IMG/VR virus record: IMGVR_UViG_2529292751_000001
Location: 61,735-125,734 of that record
Reading direction: 5' to 3' (one strand)
Source of the DNA: a virus
Taxonomy: Duplodnaviria; Heunggongvirae; Uroviricota; Caudoviricetes
DNA: 64,000 nt
Shown: one piece after another, positions 27,272 to 56,530 of the stretch
How positions within the stretch are numbered: the stretch's first letter is position 1
Layout of the letters: each line of letters begins with the position of its first letter
The notes under the pieces: model-generated
Seen by the model: the letters and a program-made list of their open reading frames with translations, nothing else
What the model was told of the DNA's origin: nothing
Database searches by the model: none
Position numbers and translations under genes: made by a program

Positions 27272-28345
27272 ATGTCTAAAACAGTAGATACATTAAAGGA
27301 TTCGGAATCATTAGAAATGATGATGGCAAAGGAGTTAGCACAAGAGAAGGTCAAAGTGTTCTCTCATAATGATTTAGATGGAGTAGGTTGCGGTATTGTA
27401 GCTTTGATGGCACATCCAACAGCAGATGTTGAATATTGTGCCTACCACGATATTAATGACAAGGTTAAAGCGTTTATTATGACTAAGGGTTATGAGATGT
27501 ATGACCGAATTTATATCACAGATATCTCAGTAAACGAAGAGGTTGCAGAGTTAATTGAAGAGCATTGCCCTACCAAAGTTAGACTTCTAGACCATCATGG
27601 TACTGCTACATGGTTAGATGACAAGTATTTCTGGGCTTTAGTTGAAGAGAAGCGAGAGGATGGCAGTATTAATAGCGGTACAAACTTACTGTTTGAAGAG
27701 CTTCAATTACAAGGATACTTCAAGGGTGAACGATATCAAGATGCATTAACTATCTTCGTAGAAATGGTTAGGCGCTATGATTCATGGGAATGGAAGAACA
27801 TCTATGATGACCAGAACCCAATGCAGTTAAACAATCTATTCTTCTTAGTTGGTATTAATAAGTTTGTAAAACGATACGTTGACCGATTCAATACACTTGA
27901 ATTATTCACTGTTAGAGAAGGTTACTGGATGGAGATGTTTGACGAGACAGATGTTGCTGTATTAACAATCGATAACAAGAAGAAGGAAGCCTACATTAAG
28001 CGCAAAGAGAAGCAAATGATTAAGGCTAATCTGATTGGATACGATGTTGGCGTAGTATTTGCAGAGCAATATATTAGTGAGTTAGGCAACGAATTATCTG
28101 AGAGAAACCAAGACTTAGAGTTTATTGTTATTATAGATATGGGAGCTAAGAAGGTGTCTTATCGCACAATTCATGCTCATATTAATCTAGGTAAAGACGT
28201 AGCAGGATTCTTTGGTGGCGGAGGTCATCCTAAAGCATCTGGTAGCATGTTTAACGAACGAGTATTAACATGGGCATACAAAGTTATATTCGGTTTAGGC
28301 TTTATCGGAAAATTCAAAAATATTGTTGACAGATTTAAAAAGTAG
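27272..28345 (+). CDS. DHH/DHHA1-family phosphoesterase (NrnA-like)
   Basis: motifs HNDLDG, DHHGT, DHHA1 GGGHPKASG; ORF track start 27239 lies inside the motif, so trimmed to the ATG at 27272. Confidence 0.6.
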   Translation: MSKTVDTLKDSESLEMMMAKELAQEKVKVFSHNDLDGVGCGIVALMAHPTADVEYCAYHDINDKVKAFIMTKGYEMYDRIYITDISVNEEVAELIEEHCPTKVRLLDHHGTATWLDDKYFWALVEEKREDGSINSGTNLLFEELQLQGYFKGERYQDALTIFVEMVRRYDSWEWKNIYDDQNPMQLNNLFFLVGINKFVKRYVDRFNTLELFTVREGYWMEMFDETDVAVLTIDNKKKEAYIKRKEKQMIKANLIGYDVGVVFAEQYISELGNELSERNQDLEFIVIIDMGAKKVSYRTIHAHINLGKDVAGFFGGGGHPKASGSMFNERVLTWAYKVIFGLGFIGKFKNIVDRFKK

Positions 28346-34442: not shown

Positions 34443-34871
34443 ATGGTTGAAATGCTGAAAATTAACTATGAAGAAAGTGTCAGAGTACACAAAGAGAATT
34501 TAAGAAGGATAGAGAAGAAGATGTGCTATAACAACGTCTTTAATGTGATGTCCTATGTTGATGACAAATTCCATAGTGGAGAATGGCGTGTAGCCTACGG
34601 TTATTGGACTGCAATAGATGGTATTATGGCTCGACACTGCTATATAGTTGATAAGGACAACAGAGTAATTGACCCTACAGCACCATTCTCTACTACTAAA
34701 GACATTAGGAATGTAGATTATCTTACGTTCAAGATATTTGAAGATGCTGACGAATATCTTGAACTTTTATGGGAGCATGACAGAGAGCCTGCCTTATACA
34801 AAGCTTTTCTAGAAGAAGAAAAGAAAGCTCATGAGTATGCTATGAAGAATAACTTAATCCTAATCCAGTAA
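34443..34871 (+). CDS. hypothetical protein (142 aa)
   Basis: ORF track. Confidence 0.45.
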   Translation: MVEMLKINYEESVRVHKENLRRIEKKMCYNNVFNVMSYVDDKFHSGEWRVAYGYWTAIDGIMARHCYIVDKDNRVIDPTAPFSTTKDIRNVDYLTFKIFEDADEYLELLWEHDREPALYKAFLEEEKKAHEYAMKNNLILIQ

Positions 34872-34921
34872 GTAGCATCTGTAGCTATCAATGTCATGAA
34901 GCCTATTGTATAAGAATTGGC

Positions 34922-34972
34922 TTTGTGACATAATATGGTTACAGATATACTATACAGTATATACTGTTACCA
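34922..34972 (+). promoter_or_regulatory. promoter/operator region of the TA module: direct repeats ACAGATATACT / ACAGTATATACT within the inverted repeat GGTTACAG...CTGTTACC
   Basis: repeats read directly from the sequence, upstream of the antitoxin SD. Confidence 0.5.
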
Positions 34973-34998
34973 TTAGAGACACTAAGGAGGATACGAGT

Positions 34999-35166
34999 AT
35001 GAGTAGCAAAAAGAGAGTACTCAATCCAGTAGAAATTAAAAAAGATGTAGATTACATTCCACTAGGAAGAGCATTCGATTTCTGGAACAACGAGGGAGAC
35101 GATATTTATGACGAAGTCTATGGGGAAGACAGTGAAGCAGGGCGAGGTATGGATAGCAAACGTTAA
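34999..35166 (+). CDS. putative antitoxin (55 aa)
   Basis: AAGGAGGATACGAGT-ATG; overlaps the toxin start; ORF track extends it upstream to 34906. Confidence 0.45.
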   Translation: MSSKKRVLNPVEIKKDVDYIPLGRAFDFWNNEGDDIYDEVYGEDSEAGRGMDSKR

Positions 35167-35452
35167 GTTCGTCCAAGATAATCAAACTAAAGTCAGACCA
35201 GTCTTGGCAATAAGCTTAGAAATCGATGGGGATGACGATGTTGTCGTCCTCCCTGTCACTTCTCAGAATCCAAGAAATGACTACGATGTAGAAGTTTCGG
35301 ATTACAAAGGGACTGGATTGTTAAAACAACCATCATACATAAGAACATCAAAGCCATTAACAATCGAAAAGAGAGAGCTTAAAAGAAAAATAGGCGAAAT
35401 CAAAGATGTTGACCTAGCGAACGCATTGGAAAAGTTTCGTTCATTATTTTAA
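35108..35452 (+). CDS. MazF/PemK-family endoribonuclease toxin
   Basis: GEVWIANV...VRPVLAIS...VVLPVTSQ typical of PemK/MazF; start at 35108 or 35120. Confidence 0.65.
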   Translation: MTKSMGKTVKQGEVWIANVKFVQDNQTKVRPVLAISLEIDGDDDVVVLPVTSQNPRNDYDVEVSDYKGTGLLKQPSYIRTSKPLTIEKRELKRKIGEIKDVDLANALEKFRSLF

Positions 35453-35457
35453 GCAGA

Positions 35458-35500
35458 AAAGATGGAAGATTCATAGTCTTTCATCTTTTTATTTTTCTCT
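35458..35500 (+). terminator. Rho-independent terminator
   Basis: AAGATGGAAG...CTTTCATCTT plus TTTTTATTTTT. Confidence 0.55.
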
Positions 35501-35501
35501 G

Positions 35502-35605
35502 ATATCTCAAAAGACAAGTATTCTCTACTCTATGAGATATGATACCAATTTCATAATTATACTTAATATCTCATAAATATAAGTAATGTAGTCTCTATGA
35601 GATGG
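35502..35605. repeat. four copies of the 9-mer ATATCTCAT in alternating orientation at ~30-35 bp spacing (35502, 35532, 35566, 35598), including the 11-mer CTCTATGAGAT twice
   Basis: read directly from the sequence; region is non-coding and bounded by terminators. Confidence 0.7.
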
Positions 35606-35675
35606 GATTTTCTTACATTTTACAACTGCCGATAATAAAGGTTATGTAAACTAACTAAAAGTAAGTAGGTAAATA

Positions 35676-35716
35676 AAGCAAAACCCTCCTGCATGAACAG
35701 GAAGGCTGTTTTGGGA
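35676..35716. terminator. bidirectional terminator (CCCTCCTG/CAGGAAGG stem flanked by A-run and T-run)
   Basis: hairpin with U-tracts on both strands. Confidence 0.55.
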
Positions 35717-35778
35717 TTCTGTATATTTTGTTGTATATTTGTTATGTAGATTTTATATAGCTATATGCTACCAGAGCG

Positions 35779-35807
35779 TCCTCTGGTGTATCGATACTCC
35801 CCTATTG
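35779..35807. repeat. two adjacent palindromes (ACCAGAG..CTCTGGT and GTATCGATAC)
   Basis: read directly from the sequence. Confidence 0.6.
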
Positions 35808-35835
35808 TACTAAATGAGAGAGCTAATATCAATAT

Positions 35836-35997
35836 CTAATTTTTAGTTGCTTTCTTAGCAATATTATTAAATTTCTTAACTTCCTCAATATTCAAATCTT
35901 TTAGTTCTACATCTCTAACAGAACCATCCGTATATATTCCTACAGGTATAAGATGACCTTTCTCATCTTTTCTTGCTCCGATAGTTACTCTAATCAT
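35836..35997 (-). CDS. hypothetical small protein (53 aa), divergent from the Xre gene
   Basis: translated by eye; GGAGAGGTGAAGTATAA-ATG on the minus strand. Confidence 0.4.
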   Translation of the reverse strand: MIRVTIGARKDEKGHLIPVGIYTDGSVRDVELKDLNIEEVKKFNNIAKKATKN

Positions 35998-36051
35998 TTA
36001 TACTTCACCTCTCCTCATTTTATATAATAGCAAAAAATAGCCCCGCTCACT

Positions 36052-36093
36052 AACTTAACTTTTCTTGACCGATTGGTTAAGTTTTGTTAAGAT
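36052..36093 (+). promoter_or_regulatory. promoter (TTGACC - 17 - TAAGAT) bracketed by the 8-bp inverted repeat AACTTAAC/GTTAAGTT plus a third GTTAAG half-site; candidate Xre operator
   Basis: read directly from the sequence. Confidence 0.45.
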
Positions 36094-36125
36094 AGCCTTA
36101 CTATATTTTACAAAGGAGAATCTAC

Positions 36126-36479
36126 ATGTCCGATATTGCTCATGTCACCGCTAAAAGAGTTAAAATGTTAAGATTAAAGAAAGGATTGACTCAAAAGAGT
36201 CTTGGGGAATTGGTTGGAGTATCTGAAGCATTTATATCCATGATAGAATCTAGGTCATCTACTAACAAGAGACCATCTGGGAAAACTATATCTCTTATAG
36301 CAGAAGCCTTAAACGTATCAACTGATTACTTATTAGGGCTATCTAATACAGAAGATTTATTACCTTACTCTGATACAAGGAGAGAATTTGAAGTAATTAT
36401 TGAAAAGGTCGAGCAGTTGGATGAGGATAAGCGTGTAATGGTTATAAAGATGATTCAATCTATGGTCAAAACATTATAG
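36126..36479 (+). CDS. Xre-family HTH transcriptional regulator (117 aa)
   Basis: LRLKKGLTQKSLGELVGVSEAFISMIE helix-turn-helix. Confidence 0.6.
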   Translation: MSDIAHVTAKRVKMLRLKKGLTQKSLGELVGVSEAFISMIESRSSTNKRPSGKTISLIAEALNVSTDYLLGLSNTEDLLPYSDTRREFEVIIEKVEQLDEDKRVMVIKMIQSMVKTL

Positions 36480-36533
36480 TTGCTGTTAACGCATAATATT
36501 ACGATGCAATGGATACACTCTTATTGGAGGTGT

Positions 36534-36773
36534 ATGATGCTATTCAGACGGGGCAAATCCAATAAAAAAGAAAAAGAGTTTAAGGCAATTGAAAATATGT
36601 TAATTGATGCCAAGATGAAAATCGACTCCTATAATCTCGATTTAAAAAACGTAGAATATACTGAGACAAAAGAGTTGTTAAATAGAGAAATCCGTCATCT
36701 AAGAGAGTTTATAGATACACTAAAGATTACATATACTGAGTACGAAAAGAACATGCAACGCAAAGAAAGATAG
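36534..36773 (+). CDS. hypothetical small coiled-coil protein (~79 aa)
   Basis: ORF track 36480..36773; ATG at 36534 after TGGAGGTGT preferred. Confidence 0.35.
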   Translation: MMLFRRGKSNKKEKEFKAIENMLIDAKMKIDSYNLDLKNVEYTETKELLNREIRHLREFIDTLKITYTEYEKNMQRKER

Positions 36774-36811
36774 TATGGTATAATATGTATGAGTCGCGTC
36801 ATTTTTCATTG

Positions 36812-36850
36812 CCTTGGCTAATCCCCAAGGTTTCTTTTTATTTTTCTTAA
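36812..36850 (+). terminator. Rho-independent terminator (CCTTGG/CCAAGG plus T-run)
   Basis: hairpin plus TTTCTTTTTATTTTT. Confidence 0.6.
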
Positions 36851-36955
36851 TATTCTGAATAATATTGAAAAATAAGGCTATTTCACTTTCACTTCATTCC
36901 CCTACTATATAATAGGAAGAAACATGACATATATATATGGATGAAGGAGGATACT

Positions 36956-38050
36956 ATGAACGTCCCAGTCAAAGGAAACGAAAAGATTACGCAGTTATTA
37001 AACGAATGGTACATTGAAATTCGTGCCAGACGAATTGGTCAAGCTCATAGATTGAAAGAAGAGATTGATAAAAAGATTGATAGTATAGAAAAAGACCAAA
37101 CTCTACTATTATACTACTCTCTCTTAGATTTTCGATTTCAGTACATTGTAGATAATCTAGGAGTCTCTGCCAACAGTTTTGATAAGGTTGAAGAGTTTGA
37201 GATTCCAACAAACAACTTTTTGACTTATTACTACCACTTCTTTAAGGCTATTCATGCTTCTGGTATTGGTAACTACATGATTGCAAAAGAACACTTTGAC
37301 AAAGCTGAATCTCTTCTTGAATTAGTTCCAGATGAGATTGAAAAAGCTGAGTTCTACTACAAATTAGGCGCTTTCCACTATGACATCTACGAATCACTCC
37401 AATCAATTAAGTATGTTAACAAAGCAAAAGAAATCTTTGAACAAAATGAAAACTATGAGCGAAATGTTGGATTCTGTGAGAACCTTCTTGGAACTGCTTG
37501 TACAAAGCTAAGAGAATGGGCTTTATCAGAGGAACATCTTATTAAAGCTATGGATATTTTCAGCAAGATTGATGAGGAAAAGTATACTTTAATGGTTAGA
37601 CATAACCTAGGGTATATGTATTCTAGTCAGAACTTATCTCCACTGGCAATTAGATATTTATCAGAGGTAACAAGTCACAATCCTAGACATCACAAAGCTC
37701 TGTTCTTACAAGCTAGAGAGCATTACAAATTAGATGAGATGGATATCGCAAAAGATTTGGCTGATAGAGGATATAGTATCTGTCTTGAGCTAGGGAATAT
37801 GGAGTATAAACACCTTTTTGCAATTCTGAAATGCCTTATATCTAATGTGTCTGGCGATGAATTGGAGAAGGTTGCAATTGAAGGAATATCTTACTTTGAA
37901 AGCGAATCACTATATGAGTATATAGAAGAGAGCCAAGAGTATATGGCTGTTAAGTTCTATGAGGAAGGCAACCATACTAAATCTAGTGAATACTTCTATC
38001 TAGCTTCAAAAACGAGACAAAAAATCAAGGAAAGGGAGTCTTTAAAATGA
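36956..38050 (+). CDS. rap: Rap-family TPR response-regulator aspartate phosphatase / quorum-sensing receptor
   Basis: N-terminus KITQLLNEWYIEIRARRIGQAHRLKEEIDKKIDSIEKDQTLLLYYSLLDFRF closely resembles Bacillus Rap proteins; TPR-like repeats throughout; ATGA overlap with the phr gene. Confidence 0.75.
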   Translation: MNVPVKGNEKITQLLNEWYIEIRARRIGQAHRLKEEIDKKIDSIEKDQTLLLYYSLLDFRFQYIVDNLGVSANSFDKVEEFEIPTNNFLTYYYHFFKAIHASGIGNYMIAKEHFDKAESLLELVPDEIEKAEFYYKLGAFHYDIYESLQSIKYVNKAKEIFEQNENYERNVGFCENLLGTACTKLREWALSEEHLIKAMDIFSKIDEEKYTLMVRHNLGYMYSSQNLSPLAIRYLSEVTSHNPRHHKALFLQAREHYKLDEMDIAKDLADRGYSICLELGNMEYKHLFAILKCLISNVSGDELEKVAIEGISYFESESLYEYIEESQEYMAVKFYEEGNHTKSSEYFYLASKTRQKIKERESLK

Positions 38051-38181
38051 AAAAAGTAGTATTGGGCTTAATGGGAATTTTAACAGCTTTAACTATGATT
38101 GTGGGCGTTCAGTCTAATAGCGATAGTAAGCCTGCGTCTCCTACTATTATGATGATGGAACATGGAGACCATGGTGGTTGA
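38047..38181 (+). CDS. phr: Phr-type secreted signalling peptide precursor (44 aa, signal sequence)
   Basis: MKKVVLGLMGILTALTMIVGV hydrophobic signal; overlaps the rap stop; below the ORF-track cutoff. Confidence 0.55.
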   Translation: MKKVVLGLMGILTALTMIVGVQSNSDSKPASPTIMMMEHGDHGG

Positions 38182-55490: not shown

Positions 55491-55511
55491 GGAGGGTATT
55501 ACTCCTCCCTG
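55491..55511 (-). other. stem-loop (AGGGAGG...CCTCCCT) abutting motif copy 22
   Basis: read directly from the sequence. Confidence 0.5.
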
Positions 55512-56530
55512 TTTTGTTTTCTAACCTGCTTTAGCTTATCACGAATCTCAGCCTTGGATTTAGGCTTAACATAATGTTTTTGAGTCGTGGATACATCGGA
55601 ATGGTTAAGAAATTCTTGAGCCAGTGTTAAATCACCTGTCTCATCAACGATTCTGTTCCCTGCTGTTTTACGAAGACAGTGAGGATGCAAGTCTGGCAAC
55701 CCTAAGATTGTACCAATCTTTCTAACTCTCATATAGATTGAAGTCTGAGACATCTTTCTATATTCTCCATCTTTCTTAACAAGGAAAATCCCATCGCACT
55801 CTAGATTGTCCATTGGTTTTCGTTTTTCTTTCCATTCTTCTAACAACTTAGCAGAACCCTCTTCGAACGCTACTTCTACCATCTTACCGCGCTTCTCTCT
55901 AATATCTAAGAACATCATATTCTCAACATCTAGACTAGACCACGTAAGTTTAGAGATAGCTCCGTTTCGATTTCCACTTTCAATCATGATGTGCCAGATT
56001 AATAGGTCTTGAATATCAAACTTTCTTCCCTTTTCTTTCTGGTAATCTTCATGAAGATGCTTTGTTACAATATCAATCTGCTCTTGAGTTAAGAAATAGT
56101 GATTAATAAGTTTCTCATCATTAGCACCCTTCATTCTATCTAGCTTTCTATCAAATGGGTGAGCCTCGATAATACCGCGCTTCATAGCCCACAAGTAGTA
56201 ACTAGATACAGCAGAAAGCTTTGTGTTAATTACTTTCTTATTATTCCCAAGCGTATCTTGACAGAAGCCAATGTAACCTTCCATAATATCTACAGCGTTT
56301 TCCATATATTCTTCATCATGAATGAAAATATTCTCCCATTCTTCTTCCAAATAAACAAGAAATTGATTGAAGTAATTCTGGTAAACCTTGTATGTTGTTT
56401 CCTTTACATCTTTGTTTTTGATAATGTTAGAACGAAGATATTTTTCATAAGCTTTAACGCTCTTCTTATTAACCTTCTCCAACTTATCTTTTGTAAAATA
56501 ACGTTTATAAACTCTTTTCTGAGCCATCAA
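55499..56530 (-). CDS. tyrosine recombinase / phage-integrase family protein embedded in the tail operon
   Basis: N-terminal SAM-like domain; C-terminal catalytic-type residues: HCLRKT (H-x-x-R), NHSD (His), QKHYV (Tyr). Confidence 0.8.
   Translation of the reverse strand: MMAQKRVYKRYFTKDKLEKVNKKSVKAYEKYLRSNIIKNKDVKETTYKVYQNYFNQFLVYLEEEWENIFIHDEEYMENAVDIMEGYIGFCQDTLGNNKKVINTKLSAVSSYYLWAMKRGIIEAHPFDRKLDRMKGANDEKLINHYFLTQEQIDIVTKHLHEDYQKEKGRKFDIQDLLIWHIMIESGNRNGAISKLTWSSLDVENMMFLDIREKRGKMVEVAFEEGSAKLLEEWKEKRKPMDNLECDGIFLVKKDGEYRKMSQTSIYMRVRKIGTILGLPDLHPHCLRKTAGNRIVDETGDLTLAQEFLNHSDVSTTQKHYVKPKSKAEIRDKLKQVRKQNREE

Follow-up and report, generated by a model that had tools for sequence, protein, structure and literature searches.

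A predicted dif-like Xer recombination site in an intergenic region of a tailed phage and on Bacillus plasmids

An intergenic region of a tailed-phage genome was analysed in a window of 64,000 nucleotides (the whole stretch of DNA under study), and a 28-bp dif-like site was found in it, consisting of two 11-bp arms with partial dyad symmetry (..ATAA / TTAT..) around a 6-bp centre (Table 1). This was the sole feature of the region with a strong statistical and comparative signal. Sequence comparison suggested that the region is probably a cer/dif-like multimer-resolution site used by the host recombinases XerC/XerD (CodV/RipX). An insulated site bound by a recombinase had already been proposed for this region in an earlier note, and the general idea agreed with the presence of an Xer-type site with terminators on both sides, while the 9-mer repeats proved to be flanking dyads and not the recombination core, and the specific candidates mostly had to be given up.

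Table 1. Features of the region, with positions in the window
Feature	Position	Strand	Evidence
Intrinsic terminator of the mazE/mazF (PemK) operon; left module boundary	35456..35500	+	16-pair stem and T-run, terminator scan
Distal dyad/hairpin unit 1, ATATCTCA-N23-TGAGATAT	35502..35540	.	inverted repeat
Proximal dyad/hairpin unit 2, ATCTCATA-N20-TATGAGAT, then T-run	35566..35614	.	inverted repeat
Dif-like Xer recombination core site (predicted)	35625..35652	+	dif pattern match, conservation, distribution
Predicted XerC/CodV arm, ACTGCCGATAA	35625-35635	+	
Central region of the dif-like site, TAAAGG	35636-35641	+	
Predicted XerD/RipX arm, TTATGTAAACT	35642-35652	+	
Conserved extension past the XerD arm, AA(C/T)TAAAAGTAAGT(AGG)	35653..35669	+	near-invariant in 16 copies
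Intrinsic terminator, weaker hairpin on the + strand	35672..35707	-	11 pairs, 5 G-C, TTGCTTTATT tail, terminator scan
Candidate small RNA, ~125 nt	35672..35797	-	fold, covariation; predicted ends
Sigma-70-type promoter of the candidate small RNA, TTGATA-17-TACAAT	35804..35832	-	10/12 match

The core site, its conservation and its distribution

In a pattern scan of the window, the core site matched ACTNCCNATAA-N6-TTATGTNAACT with 0 mismatches at the 19 specified positions, when 0.06 matches per window were expected by chance at 3 or fewer mismatches, and it was the one strong match in the window. The host clade was assigned from homologues in B. cereus-group genomes. The XerD arm was identical (11/11) to that of the B. 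subtilis dif, ACTTCCTAGAATATATATTATGTAAACT, in which this arm has been experimentally defined (PMC3025954), and the XerC arm agreed at 8/11 positions. Comparison with the B. anthracis/cereus-group dif, ACT(G/A)CCTATAATATATATTATGTTAACT (PMC3025954, main text and supplementary file 2), gave 10/11 identity in each arm, the chromosomal B. cereus comparator being a published prediction and not a site mapped by experiment. The binding preferences of XerC/XerD for dif arms have been summarised (PMC5357621). The centre TAAAGG had only the TA on the XerC side in common with the chromosomal TATATA (2/6).

The dif-like site was present at the syntenic position in every phage relative examined and also on at least 14 independent Bacillus plasmids. 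In an alignment of 16 copies of the site with their flanks (A2), the XerD arm was invariant in 16/16 copies, as was the ATAA of the XerC arm, while the 6-bp centre took at least eight forms, with two further forms among the phage relatives. Conserved arms around a variable centre are the pattern expected of a tyrosine-recombinase core site. Most of the B. cereus-group copies carried the XerC arm ACT(G/A)CC(G/T)ATAA; the subtilis-like arm ACTTCCTATAA was detected on pBS72 of B. subtilis and on one B. cereus plasmid, so the arm sequences may track the host. The 17-bp extension on the XerD side was near-invariant in the 16 copies though the DNA further out was unrelated; it lies outside the canonical dif, and a plain dif model leaves it unexplained.

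The carriers of the site with its flanking architecture comprised dozens of large Bacillus plasmids, including those of B. thuringiensis and B. cereus strains and pBS72, and these copies stood in unrelated backbones beside unrelated genes. BLAST located the site at one place per record in 57 plasmids, and the element occurred in only three loci among 185,579 species genomes. Searches of a phage collection by megablast and blastn gave no relative, only short chance matches. A common upstream protein gene was dismissed, the upstream ORFs being unrelated between the plasmids.

We also considered that the block is not a recombination site, and instead represents a promoter (with the XerC arm as its TATAAT-like element) plus the 5' end of a short plus-strand RNA, one half of a convergent RNA pair of the type I toxin-antitoxin kind, or an IS/MITE end. 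The sequence (G/T)ATAAT does stand 6-7 nt upstream of a conserved TTATG, but a -35 element was not consistently present with it, and nothing there was picked up by the promoter scan; moreover, the 11 bp downstream of 'TATAAT' were the most conserved and the 6 bp between were the least, which is the reverse of a promoter pattern. A convergent pair would be compatible with the minus-strand small RNA candidate, which uses the common terminator, and small minus-strand ORFs of 34-35 codons overlap the block in some copies (L028, L033), but such ORFs were broken or frame-shifted in most copies. A type I toxin-antitoxin system or leader peptide, suggested by these ORFs and by tiny minus-strand ORFs ending in ..TYF*, was rejected, as the frames and stops were not conserved whereas the DNA was. 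For an IS/MITE end, a TnpB gene adjoins the copy in L019. The presence in three genomic loci and once per plasmid is not that of a multicopy MITE, and an IS200-IS605 end or omega-RNA, considered for the tnpB beside the pBMX_1 copy, was discarded because L021 and L023 are otherwise identical and lack the tnpB insertion. Agreement with both dif arms at 19/19 positions, with the spacing exact, cannot arise by chance. This group of explanations is thus regarded as very improbable.

The genes next to the site varied among close relatives. On the left, mazEF, Imm70 or a DndB-like gene was found, and the homology with one relative in which the Imm70 gene replaces mazEF (L012) began at around 35505; a 53-aa ORF was present or absent, and Rap-Phr was missing in L035 and L036. 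At the site, a patch of 54 bp, which stops precisely where the centre meets the XerD arm, was identical to the sister phage L001 at only 29/54 positions, whereas its flanks were identical at 48/48 and 28/28; the same patch agreed with plasmid copies at 43/54 and 41/54. In the strain TD42, two contigs (L021/L022) had 510 bp in common from the centre/XerD arm on, and their left flanks were unrelated. Judging from these sequences, the patch and the TD42 contigs are traces of exchange at the dif-like site.

Such traces raise the alternative that Xer recombination here forms and resolves co-integrates and thereby moves accessory modules such as the toxin-antitoxin and Rap-Phr genes between replicons, in the manner of pdif modules. 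The mosaic flanking genes, the plasmid-like patch that stops at the central region, the hybrid site within one strain and the occurrence of the whole architecture in unrelated backbones beside unrelated genes are all consistent with it. The modules of Acinetobacter pdif are, however, bounded by pairs of sites, while the window and the complete relative each held a single strong match and BLAST found one place per plasmid record; in addition, the copies differ in their centres, so that most pairs of them would be unable to complete an exchange. Shuffling was accordingly judged rather unlikely as the main explanation. It can coexist with a role in resolution.

Dyads, terminators and a candidate small RNA beside the site

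The left terminator, reported earlier, was confirmed on the plus strand after mazF (PemK_toxin Pfam match at 35108-35452), with its stem at 35456-35490 followed by a T-run. The right terminator (35682-35707) had been described as bidirectional; it was strong on the minus strand and weaker on the plus strand. The relatives retained the minus-strand terminator, and one pair in its lower stem showed a compensatory change; it presumably ends the candidate small RNA of that strand and keeps leftward transcription off the site.

Between the two terminators, the earlier note had reported the 9-mer ATATCTCAT four times, and it did not list the 28-bp dif-like site. The 9-mer was exact only twice (35532 on the minus strand and 35566 on the plus strand), the other two places agreeing at 8/9 (35502) and 7/9 (35596). 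The 11-mer CTCTATGAGAT did occur exactly twice, at 35528 and 35593. The four 9-mer sites turned out to be two inverted-repeat pairs, 35502-35509/35533-35540 and 35568-35575/35596-35603, both of which sit within a direct duplication of ~65 bp. A conserved dyad was found 20-60 bp from the XerC arm in the 16 copies, and a second dyad lay further out in several lineages, the upstream unit resembling unit 1 being also detected in L018, L020, L036, L039 and L040.

Unit 2 was conserved in the 16 aligned copies, with TCTCA...GA invariant, a T-run after it in all copies and one covarying pair (AU in 9, GC in 6 and unpaired in 1). Its hairpin had z = -0.3 in the window when compared to z = -3.3 to -4.0 in plasmid copies, and unit 1 folded as RNA gave -10 kcal/mol with z = -1.6. 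The plus strand of 35495-35720 as one structured RNA was not significant (z = -1.5). The dyads are thus weak as hairpins in the window, with one covarying pair as the evidence that they are conserved. Unit 2 may act as accessory sequence and/or as a weak plus-strand terminator, and the dyads could be terminators instead of accessory sequence.

The region had been described as non-transcribed, which became doubtful for its right third, since the 10/12 promoter on the minus strand points into it. The arrangement TTGnnn-17 nt-TA(C/T)AAT was kept in 10/10 loci examined. The candidate small RNA reads, in order, the GTATCGATAC palindrome (35788-35797), a 5' hairpin, an A/U-rich variable middle and the terminator, and its minimum free energy was -31.8 kcal/mol (z = -3.3). 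The 5' hairpin, ACCAGAG-CGTC-CTCTGGT (35770-35787), has 7 pairs, with none broken in 9 sequences and 4 showing compensatory changes. Of the two palindromes reported earlier, GTATCGATAC was found as described and the first had been mis-transcribed, being in fact this hairpin with its 4-nt loop; the tandem GTATATTT(T)GTT repeats were found at 35721-35743, within the variable middle. The candidate was present in the seven distinct phage-family sequences tested and in the plasmids L018 and L025. An Rfam 15 scan of 34500-37000 with E up to 10 returned three chance-level matches (E = 1.9-3.6), all far below the gathering score; the conserved small RNA candidate beside the site corresponds to no described family in Rfam. 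The 53-aa ORF (35836-35997) had a single homologue cluster, 96% identical, and no match in Pfam, PHROG or NCBIfam, and is not part of the module because it is missing from several relatives.

Replicon context and the probable role of the site

The complete circular relative NZ_CP032366.1 is 137.6 kb in length and was deposited as a circular plasmid. Its only full XerD arm with a dif-like XerC arm was detected at 27,985-28,012, exactly at the cumulative GC-skew maximum (27-28 kb) and close to the gene-convergence point. The skew minimum (119-120 kb) adjoins the gene annotated as replication initiator protein A, ~46 kb from the site in one direction round the circle and ~92 kb in the opposite one. 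In the window, the site was located 2-3 kb from the switch of GC skew and gene orientation, where the skew may partly reflect the direction of transcription. The site likely marks the replication terminus of these replicons. All contigs with the neighbouring Xre gene or the looked-up homologues were shorter than 200 kb, and the longest contig was 113-138 kb for nearly every homologue cluster. The phage thus appears to be kept as a plasmid circle of some 125-140 kb, as judged from its relatives and these contig sizes. None of the genes in the examined part of the window was found to be a partition gene, and the SpoIIIE recognition sequence of B. subtilis, GAGAAGGG, had no occurrence in the window.

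The origin and packaging site suggested in the earlier note fared poorly in this context. Dyads that recur in a stretch insulated from transcription would suit a replication origin or a pac/cos site. The locus lies, however, near the skew maximum and the point of gene convergence, with the minimum and the initiator gene elsewhere in the complete relative, and there are no more than two dyad copies. As for packaging, the terminase gene of the relative (127,275-129,005) is ~38 kb from the site by the shorter way round the circle, and the same module was found on many non-phage plasmids. Either function is extremely unlikely.

The site had also been proposed as attP for the tyrosine recombinase encoded at 55499-56530. 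This gene, the nearest of its kind to the site, is 20 kb distant among tail genes, and the site is of the host XerC/XerD type. The best NCBIfam matches of the enzyme were XerA/XerC/XerD, far below the cut-offs, and this phage Xer-like recombinase might act here instead of, or with, the host enzymes. A classical integrase-linked attP was not supported, since no integrase gene is adjacent and many plasmids carry the same site without an adjacent integrase.

An attP of the IMEX type, by which the phage would integrate into the host chromosomal dif via XerC/XerD in the manner of the Vibrio elements CTXphi, VGJphi and TLCphi, was weighed separately. The site closely mimics the host dif, and the centres of some relatives (TATATG in L037, L040 and L035, and TATATC in L036) are one base off the chromosomal TATATA (5/6), so that XerC-side strand exchange with dif is conceivable in them; the best NCBIfam match of the neighbouring Xre was moreover the RstR phage-repressor family, below the cut-off. 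The window centre, in contrast, has nothing but TA in common with TATATA, and the limited sample of family contigs contained no chromosomal junction and no contig above 200 kb. Among the relatives is a closed plasmid circle that encodes its own replication initiator, and dozens of large, autonomously replicating plasmids carry the site as well. We therefore consider chromosomal integration improbable.

The multimer-resolution reading, which we prefer, can be formulated as follows. Homologous recombination between sister copies of the circular phage-plasmid would generate dimers. Host XerC (CodV in Bacillus) would bind the left 11-bp arm and XerD (RipX) the right arm, and the two enzymes, which resolve chromosome dimers in the host, would exchange strands across the 6-bp centre. 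A dimer, with its two sites in direct repeat, would in this way be recombined back to monomers, and each daughter cell could inherit a copy. The same task is performed for the chromosome by dif, for enterobacterial plasmids by cer/psi and for phage P1 by loxP/Cre. Since the centre TAAAGG is unlike the chromosomal TATATA, complete exchange with the chromosome should be disfavoured. The XerC-side dyads and the two flanking terminators may act as accessory or architectural sequences, as shields against transcription, or both.

Surveys of plasmid prophages in the B. cereus group noted phage Xer-like recombinases and assumed dimer resolution, with dif sites unmentioned (PMC8026635). Our literature search on Xer/dif-like sites of Bacillus plasmids or phage-plasmids found no report, and an earlier one may still exist. 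The 28-bp mimic of the host dif provides a concrete and testable site for dimer resolution in phage-plasmids, and suggests that host CodV/RipX, rather than or besides phage enzymes, keep phage-plasmids of ~130 kb monomeric. As the same site and architecture are found on dozens of large Bacillus plasmids, it could be a general stability determinant, and it could also be a crossover point for the exchange of accessory genes between plasmids and phages.

Comparison with known systems

Bsdif, the chromosomal dif of Bacillus, is bound by CodV/RipX (Sciochetti et al. 2001, as cited in PMC3025954 and PMC5357621). The phage site has the same 11 + 6 + 11 organization and an identical XerD/RipX arm, and it is likewise located at the GC-skew switch and gene-convergence point of its replicon. 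It differs in being carried on a phage(-plasmid) and on plasmids, in the centre (TAAAGG versus TATATA), and in the conserved flanks, which comprise the dyads towards the XerC arm and the 17 bp past the XerD arm. The original Bsdif paper reportedly also connects SPbeta yopP with codV phenotypes.

The sites cer of ColE1 and psi of pSC101 are host XerC/XerD cores on extrachromosomal replicons, with centres that differ from dif and further conserved DNA on the XerC side, features that the predicted site appears to share. In sites of this type, the XerC side carries about 150-200 bp of accessory DNA, which is bound by architectural proteins and makes the reaction selective for resolution; PepA, ArgR and ArcA are among the enterobacterial accessory proteins. 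The putative accessory region here has no sequence similarity to theirs. As in cer/psi systems, the site was found once per circular replicon in the window, the complete relative and 57 plasmids, the replicon status of the phage itself being deduced from its relatives. In addition, cer holds the promoter for the small regulatory RNA Rcd (PMC4393325, PMC5357621), and a conserved candidate small-RNA gene adjoins the phage site. The small RNA candidate would, however, have its own promoter on the XerD side, at a distance of ~150 bp, and be transcribed towards the site and not from within it. A quite unlikely further reading is that the site, dyads, extension and small RNA together form a Gram-positive counterpart of the whole cer system, a dimer-sensing checkpoint shared horizontally between Bacillus plasmids and tailed phage-plasmids; the output or action of the small RNA might then depend on the multimer state, by analogy with Rcd of ColE1. 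In a bolder variant, the same site would switch the tailed phage between episomal and dif-integrated states via the host Xer enzymes.

[quoted passage not shown] P1 uses its own dedicated recombinase on an unrelated 34-bp site, whereas the phage site copies the host dif, which implies the use of host enzymes. The attP sites of IMEXs (CTXphi, VGJphi, TLCphi and the gonococcal genetic island) are also dif-like sites on mobile elements and are recognised by host Xer (PMC5357621). Those elements, however, insert into the chromosome at dif, most of them are islands or small filamentous phages, and the XerD arms of TLCphi and the gonococcal island are divergent; the present element is a tailed phage of ~130 kb with episomal relatives, and both of its arms are well conserved. 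The pdif sites of Acinetobacter are XerC/XerD sites on plasmids, associated with accessory genes that form mosaics and include toxin-antitoxin modules (PMC5790767, PMC7399989). They resemble the present case in being plasmid-borne Xer-type sites beside mosaic accessory genes, but pdif sites are multicopy and bracket the modules, whereas a single site per replicon was found here.

Sequence and distribution of the dif-like Xer site

The dif-like site of the window reads ACTGCCGATAA-TAAAGG-TTATGTAAACT. The chromosome dimer-resolution site dif of Bacillus subtilis is ACTTCCTAGAA-TATATA-TTATGTAAACT, with TTATGTAAACT as the XerD/RipX-binding arm, according to the passage of PMC3025954 that cites Sciochetti et al. 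(2001). The supplementary table of PMC3025954 predicts ACTGCCTATAA-TATATA-TTATGTTAACT for B. anthracis and a site starting with ACTACCTATAA for B. cereus ATCC 14579 and G9842. The two arms in the window each matched the predicted B. cereus-group dif at 10/11 positions, and the centre differed. A degenerate dif pattern with 19 fixed positions matched here without mismatch; shuffled windows gave 0.06 matches even when three mismatches were allowed.

The phage collection contained no close relative of the window phage, and relatives were found by anchoring on proteins flanking the region. These were L001, a 127-kb IMG/VR contig of a sister phage approximately 90% identical across the neighbourhood of the site; L013-L017, identical copies from five sequencing runs; L012, a Logan contig with an Imm70 gene in place of mazEF; and L036-L040, more distant family members reached via Xre homologues (71-87% identity). 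Homology between the window and L012 started at approximately 35505, indicating that the repeats go with the right-hand side and do not belong to the toxin-antitoxin module. When the plasmid collection was searched sensitively with 35553-35716, 57 records (55 from Bacillus) contained unannotated homologues, at a single place in each and with 35621-35667 as the core. Most carriers belonged to the B. cereus group, and the others included pBS72 from B. subtilis as well as plasmids from B. safensis, B. pumilus and Brevibacillus.

About 15 independent copies, when aligned, shared one fixed layout. The dyad (C/T)(A/G)TCTCA(A/T)..N20..(T/A)TGAGA(T/C) comes first and has a T-run after it; a spacer of 20-25 bp then leads to the block AC(T)nCC(G/T)ATAA-N6-TTATGTAAACT, and AA(C/T)TAAAAGTAAGT stands after the XerD arm. 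The full site was kept in every plasmid and phage-relative copy. In a 16-sequence alignment, the XerD arm and the inner ATAA of the XerC arm were invariant, and the 6-bp centre took at least eight forms (TAAAGG, TAAAGC, TAAAGA, TAAAAG, TATATC, TATCTC, TATTTC and GATTTC); TATATG was also found among phage relatives. The pBS72 copy had an XerC arm of the B. subtilis type, ACTTCCTATAA. Fixed arms around a variable centre are the pattern of a tyrosine-recombinase core site. As this conservation is the opposite of that of a promoter, a promoter reading was rejected. Type I toxin-antitoxin and IS-end readings of the block were likewise examined and rejected. What the analysis established directly is the sequence identity of the site, its pattern of conservation, where it lies and how it is distributed; the site belongs to the Xer/dif family on all sequence-level criteria tested.

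Two sets of copies fit, anecdotally, crossovers at the site. The window and L001 were identical at 48/48 positions over 35540-35587 and at 28/28 over 35642-35669, and at just 29/54 over 35588-35641. This patch, which stops exactly at the border between centre and XerD arm, was closer to plasmid copies (43/54 identical to L025 and 41/54 to L018, plasmid pG9842_140). In B. proteolyticus TD42, contigs L021 (2314-2830) and L022 (2392-2908) have 510 bp in common from the centre/XerD arm onward, with unrelated left flanks and a degenerate XerC arm in one; the segment may be an Xer-mobilised module or a hybrid site. A role in shuffling, like that of pdif modules, is unlikely to be the main one of the site, and it may coexist with resolution. 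The shared TD42 segment encodes an ORF of approximately 63 aa on the minus strand.

Two further loci carried additional elements. On the B. safensis plasmid NZ_CP015608.1 (L027, 2505-2575), an inverted XerD arm with extension stands 24 bp after a full dif-like site (TTATGTAAACTAACT-N24-AGTTAGTTTACAT); the pair adjoins an HTH regulator gene and recalls CTXphi attP with its paired inverted sites. On pBMX_1 (L019, 3346-4543), an IS200/IS605-family TnpB element is inserted approximately 270 bp from the site; L021 and L023, loci identical in other respects, lack it.

Position of the site in the replicon

The window comes from a large tailed phage of the B. cereus group. Up to approximately 35 kb, the plus strand carries genes for replication and nucleotide metabolism (DnaB-like helicase, PolIII-alpha-like polymerase, exonuclease V-like helicase, ribonucleotide reductase, thymidine kinase and dUTPase), and from 64 kb down to 38.2 kb the minus strand carries tail, lysis and other late genes. 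The site region lies where these blocks converge, within a small accessory-gene island.

Coordinates of features in the window
Feature	Position	Strand	Remark
dif-like site	35625-35652	+	
XerC/CodV arm	35625-35635	+	
Centre	35636-35641	+	
XerD/RipX arm	35642-35652	+	
17-bp extension	35653-35669		
Inverted-repeat pair 1	35502-35509 with 35533-35540		
Inverted-repeat pair 2	35568-35575 with 35596-35603		
Promoter	35832..35804	-	TTGATA-17-TACAAT
Small-RNA locus (candidate)	35672-35832	-	
Candidate small RNA	~35797 to 35672	-	~125 nt
PemK toxin of mazE/mazF	35108-35452		accessory island
Orphan ORF, 53 aa	35836-35997	-	accessory island
Xre-type repressor	36126-36479		accessory island
Rap/Phr pair	36941-38181		accessory island
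Tyrosine recombinase	55499-56530	-	among tail genes
18-mer TTAAACAAAAGTATTGCA, examples	3204, 9469, 11445, 19945, 22317, 24863, 27226, 30705	+	
18-mer TTAAACAAAAGTATTGCA, examples	40197, 43713, 47896, 55472	-	

The closest deposited relative was the B. wiedmannii plasmid NZ_CP032366.1, a closed circle of 137,592 bp with tape-measure, tail-fibre, terminase and holin genes and approximately 84% identity, in patches, to the late region of the window. The whole circle, joined from five pieces, was scanned for the site and for GC skew. Just one site combined a full XerD arm with a dif-like XerC arm, namely TGTGCTTAGAA-TATATG-TTATGTAAACT at 27,985-28,012. It shared a 1-kb bin with the cumulative skew maximum (27-28 kb) and was approximately 0.6 kb from the convergence of gene orientation. 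At the skew minimum (119-120 kb), which adjoins the annotated gene for replication initiator protein A, gene orientation diverges. The site thus holds a terminus-like position, matching the placement of chromosomal dif. In the window, cumulative skew rose until approximately 37-39 kb and fell thereafter; the site is 2-3 kb from this switch, with the Xre/Rap-Phr insertion, partly or wholly missing in some relatives, in between.

Contigs with the Xre gene or looked-up homologues were all shorter than 200 kb, and the longest was 113-138 kb for nearly every homologue cluster, the sizes expected of complete extrachromosomal replicons and not of integrated prophages. Together with the circular relative, they make a plasmid-prophage lifestyle likely for the window phage. 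IMEX-style integration at chromosomal dif is improbable. Centres one base off TATATA in some relatives speak for it; no integrated copy was seen among the family contigs looked up.

Other features of the island and its surroundings were also recorded. The Rap/Phr pair is a quorum-sensing cassette carried by the phage, and is missing from relatives L035 and L036. It consists of a RapH_N-domain Rap-family TPR protein and, after it and overlapping it, a Phr-like secreted-peptide ORF of 44 aa. The 53-aa ORF has a strong ribosome-binding site and is missing from several phage relatives; family searches gave no match, and a word-based search of 5.8 billion proteins found a single homologue cluster. 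Possible homologues are the small ORFs annotated at matching places in CP097261 (53 aa) and pG9842_140 (58 aa), the latter giving the sole DNA match seen, a weak one of 62%. The 18-mer TTAAACAAAAGTATTGCA occurred at 26 sites between 833 and 57744 with up to three mismatches (0.27 expected), always in the orientation of the genes and often in short gaps directly 5' of ORFs; it looks like a promoter or regulatory motif specific to the phage. No copy at this threshold was found at 31.4-40.2 kb, the accessory island with the dif-like site.

Flanking dyads and a candidate small RNA

Most of the sequence features that the earlier note described for 35455-35835 are present. Its four alternating 9-mers include two exact copies, and are really two inverted-repeat pairs inside a direct duplication of approximately 65 bp; these pairs form the arms of two dyads that flank the site on its XerC side. 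The proximal dyad was kept in 16/16 aligned copies, each with the T-run after it, and one base pair covaried (A-T in nine copies, G-C in six, one exception), the other pairs being invariant. Folded as RNA, the dyads gave weak hairpins in the window (z = -0.3 and -1.6), and some plasmid copies folded better (z to -4.0). In every copy examined the upstream gene, unrelated from plasmid to plasmid, was aimed at the site. We infer that the dyads either stop transcription arriving from outside or serve as binding sites for an architectural protein; in cer/psi, accessory sequences on the XerC side bind such a protein, and the dyads are candidate equivalents.

The proposal that the region is non-transcribed is doubtful for its right third, which is probably transcribed from a good minus-strand promoter aimed into it. 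The origin and packaging-site readings were examined and rejected. Of the two palindromes, the first exists with a corrected sequence, ACCAGAG-CGTC-CTCTGGT. The right-hand palindromes and tandem repeats are parts of a candidate minus-strand small RNA, whose locus comprises a promoter of the sigma-70 type, a 5' hairpin that covaries, and a terminator. The promoter TTGnnn-17 nt-TA(C/T)AAT, the hairpin, the terminator and, where the RNA is predicted to start, the palindrome GTATCGATAC recurred in the seven distinct phage-family sequences tested, and the same arrangement was found in plasmids L018 and L025. The 5' hairpin had seven pairs, none broken in nine sequences, with compensatory double changes in four (e.g., ACCAGAG/CTCTGGT to GTTGGGG/CTCCAAC). 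The fold was more stable than shuffles (z = -3.3), the middle with the GTATATTT(T)GTT repeats was variable, and an Rfam search of the region gave no family match. The terminator is predicted to stop leftward transcription approximately 20 bp before the 17-bp extension and 40 bp before the core site. The candidate is kept beside the dif-like site in the phage family, pG9842_140 and CP097261 pd.

Proposed function and comparison with known systems

We infer that CodV/RipX, the XerC/XerD homologues of the host, would bind the arms and, by catalysis at the site, would turn dimers of the circular plasmid prophage back into monomers. A centre other than the chromosomal one would disfavour complete exchange with chromosomal dif, and the terminators and dyads would insulate the site or supply architecture. 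The phage tyrosine recombinase could be an additional actor. Its top NCBIfam matches were XerA/XerC/XerD models at 94 bits against cut-offs of 220-335, suggesting only a distant Xer resemblance. Its gene adjoins a 2510-aa tape-measure-like ORF, and the B. wiedmannii relative has the same gene and, close to an HTH gene, one further tyrosine recombinase.

No description of such dif-like sites on Bacillus plasmids or phage-plasmids was found in the searchable literature, and a survey of B. cereus plasmid prophages treats phage-encoded Xer-like recombinases only (PMC8026635). Extras beyond a plain dif are the 17-bp extension on the XerD side, the dyads and the linked candidate small RNA. In its mode of working the site would most resemble cer/psi, or loxP of P1.
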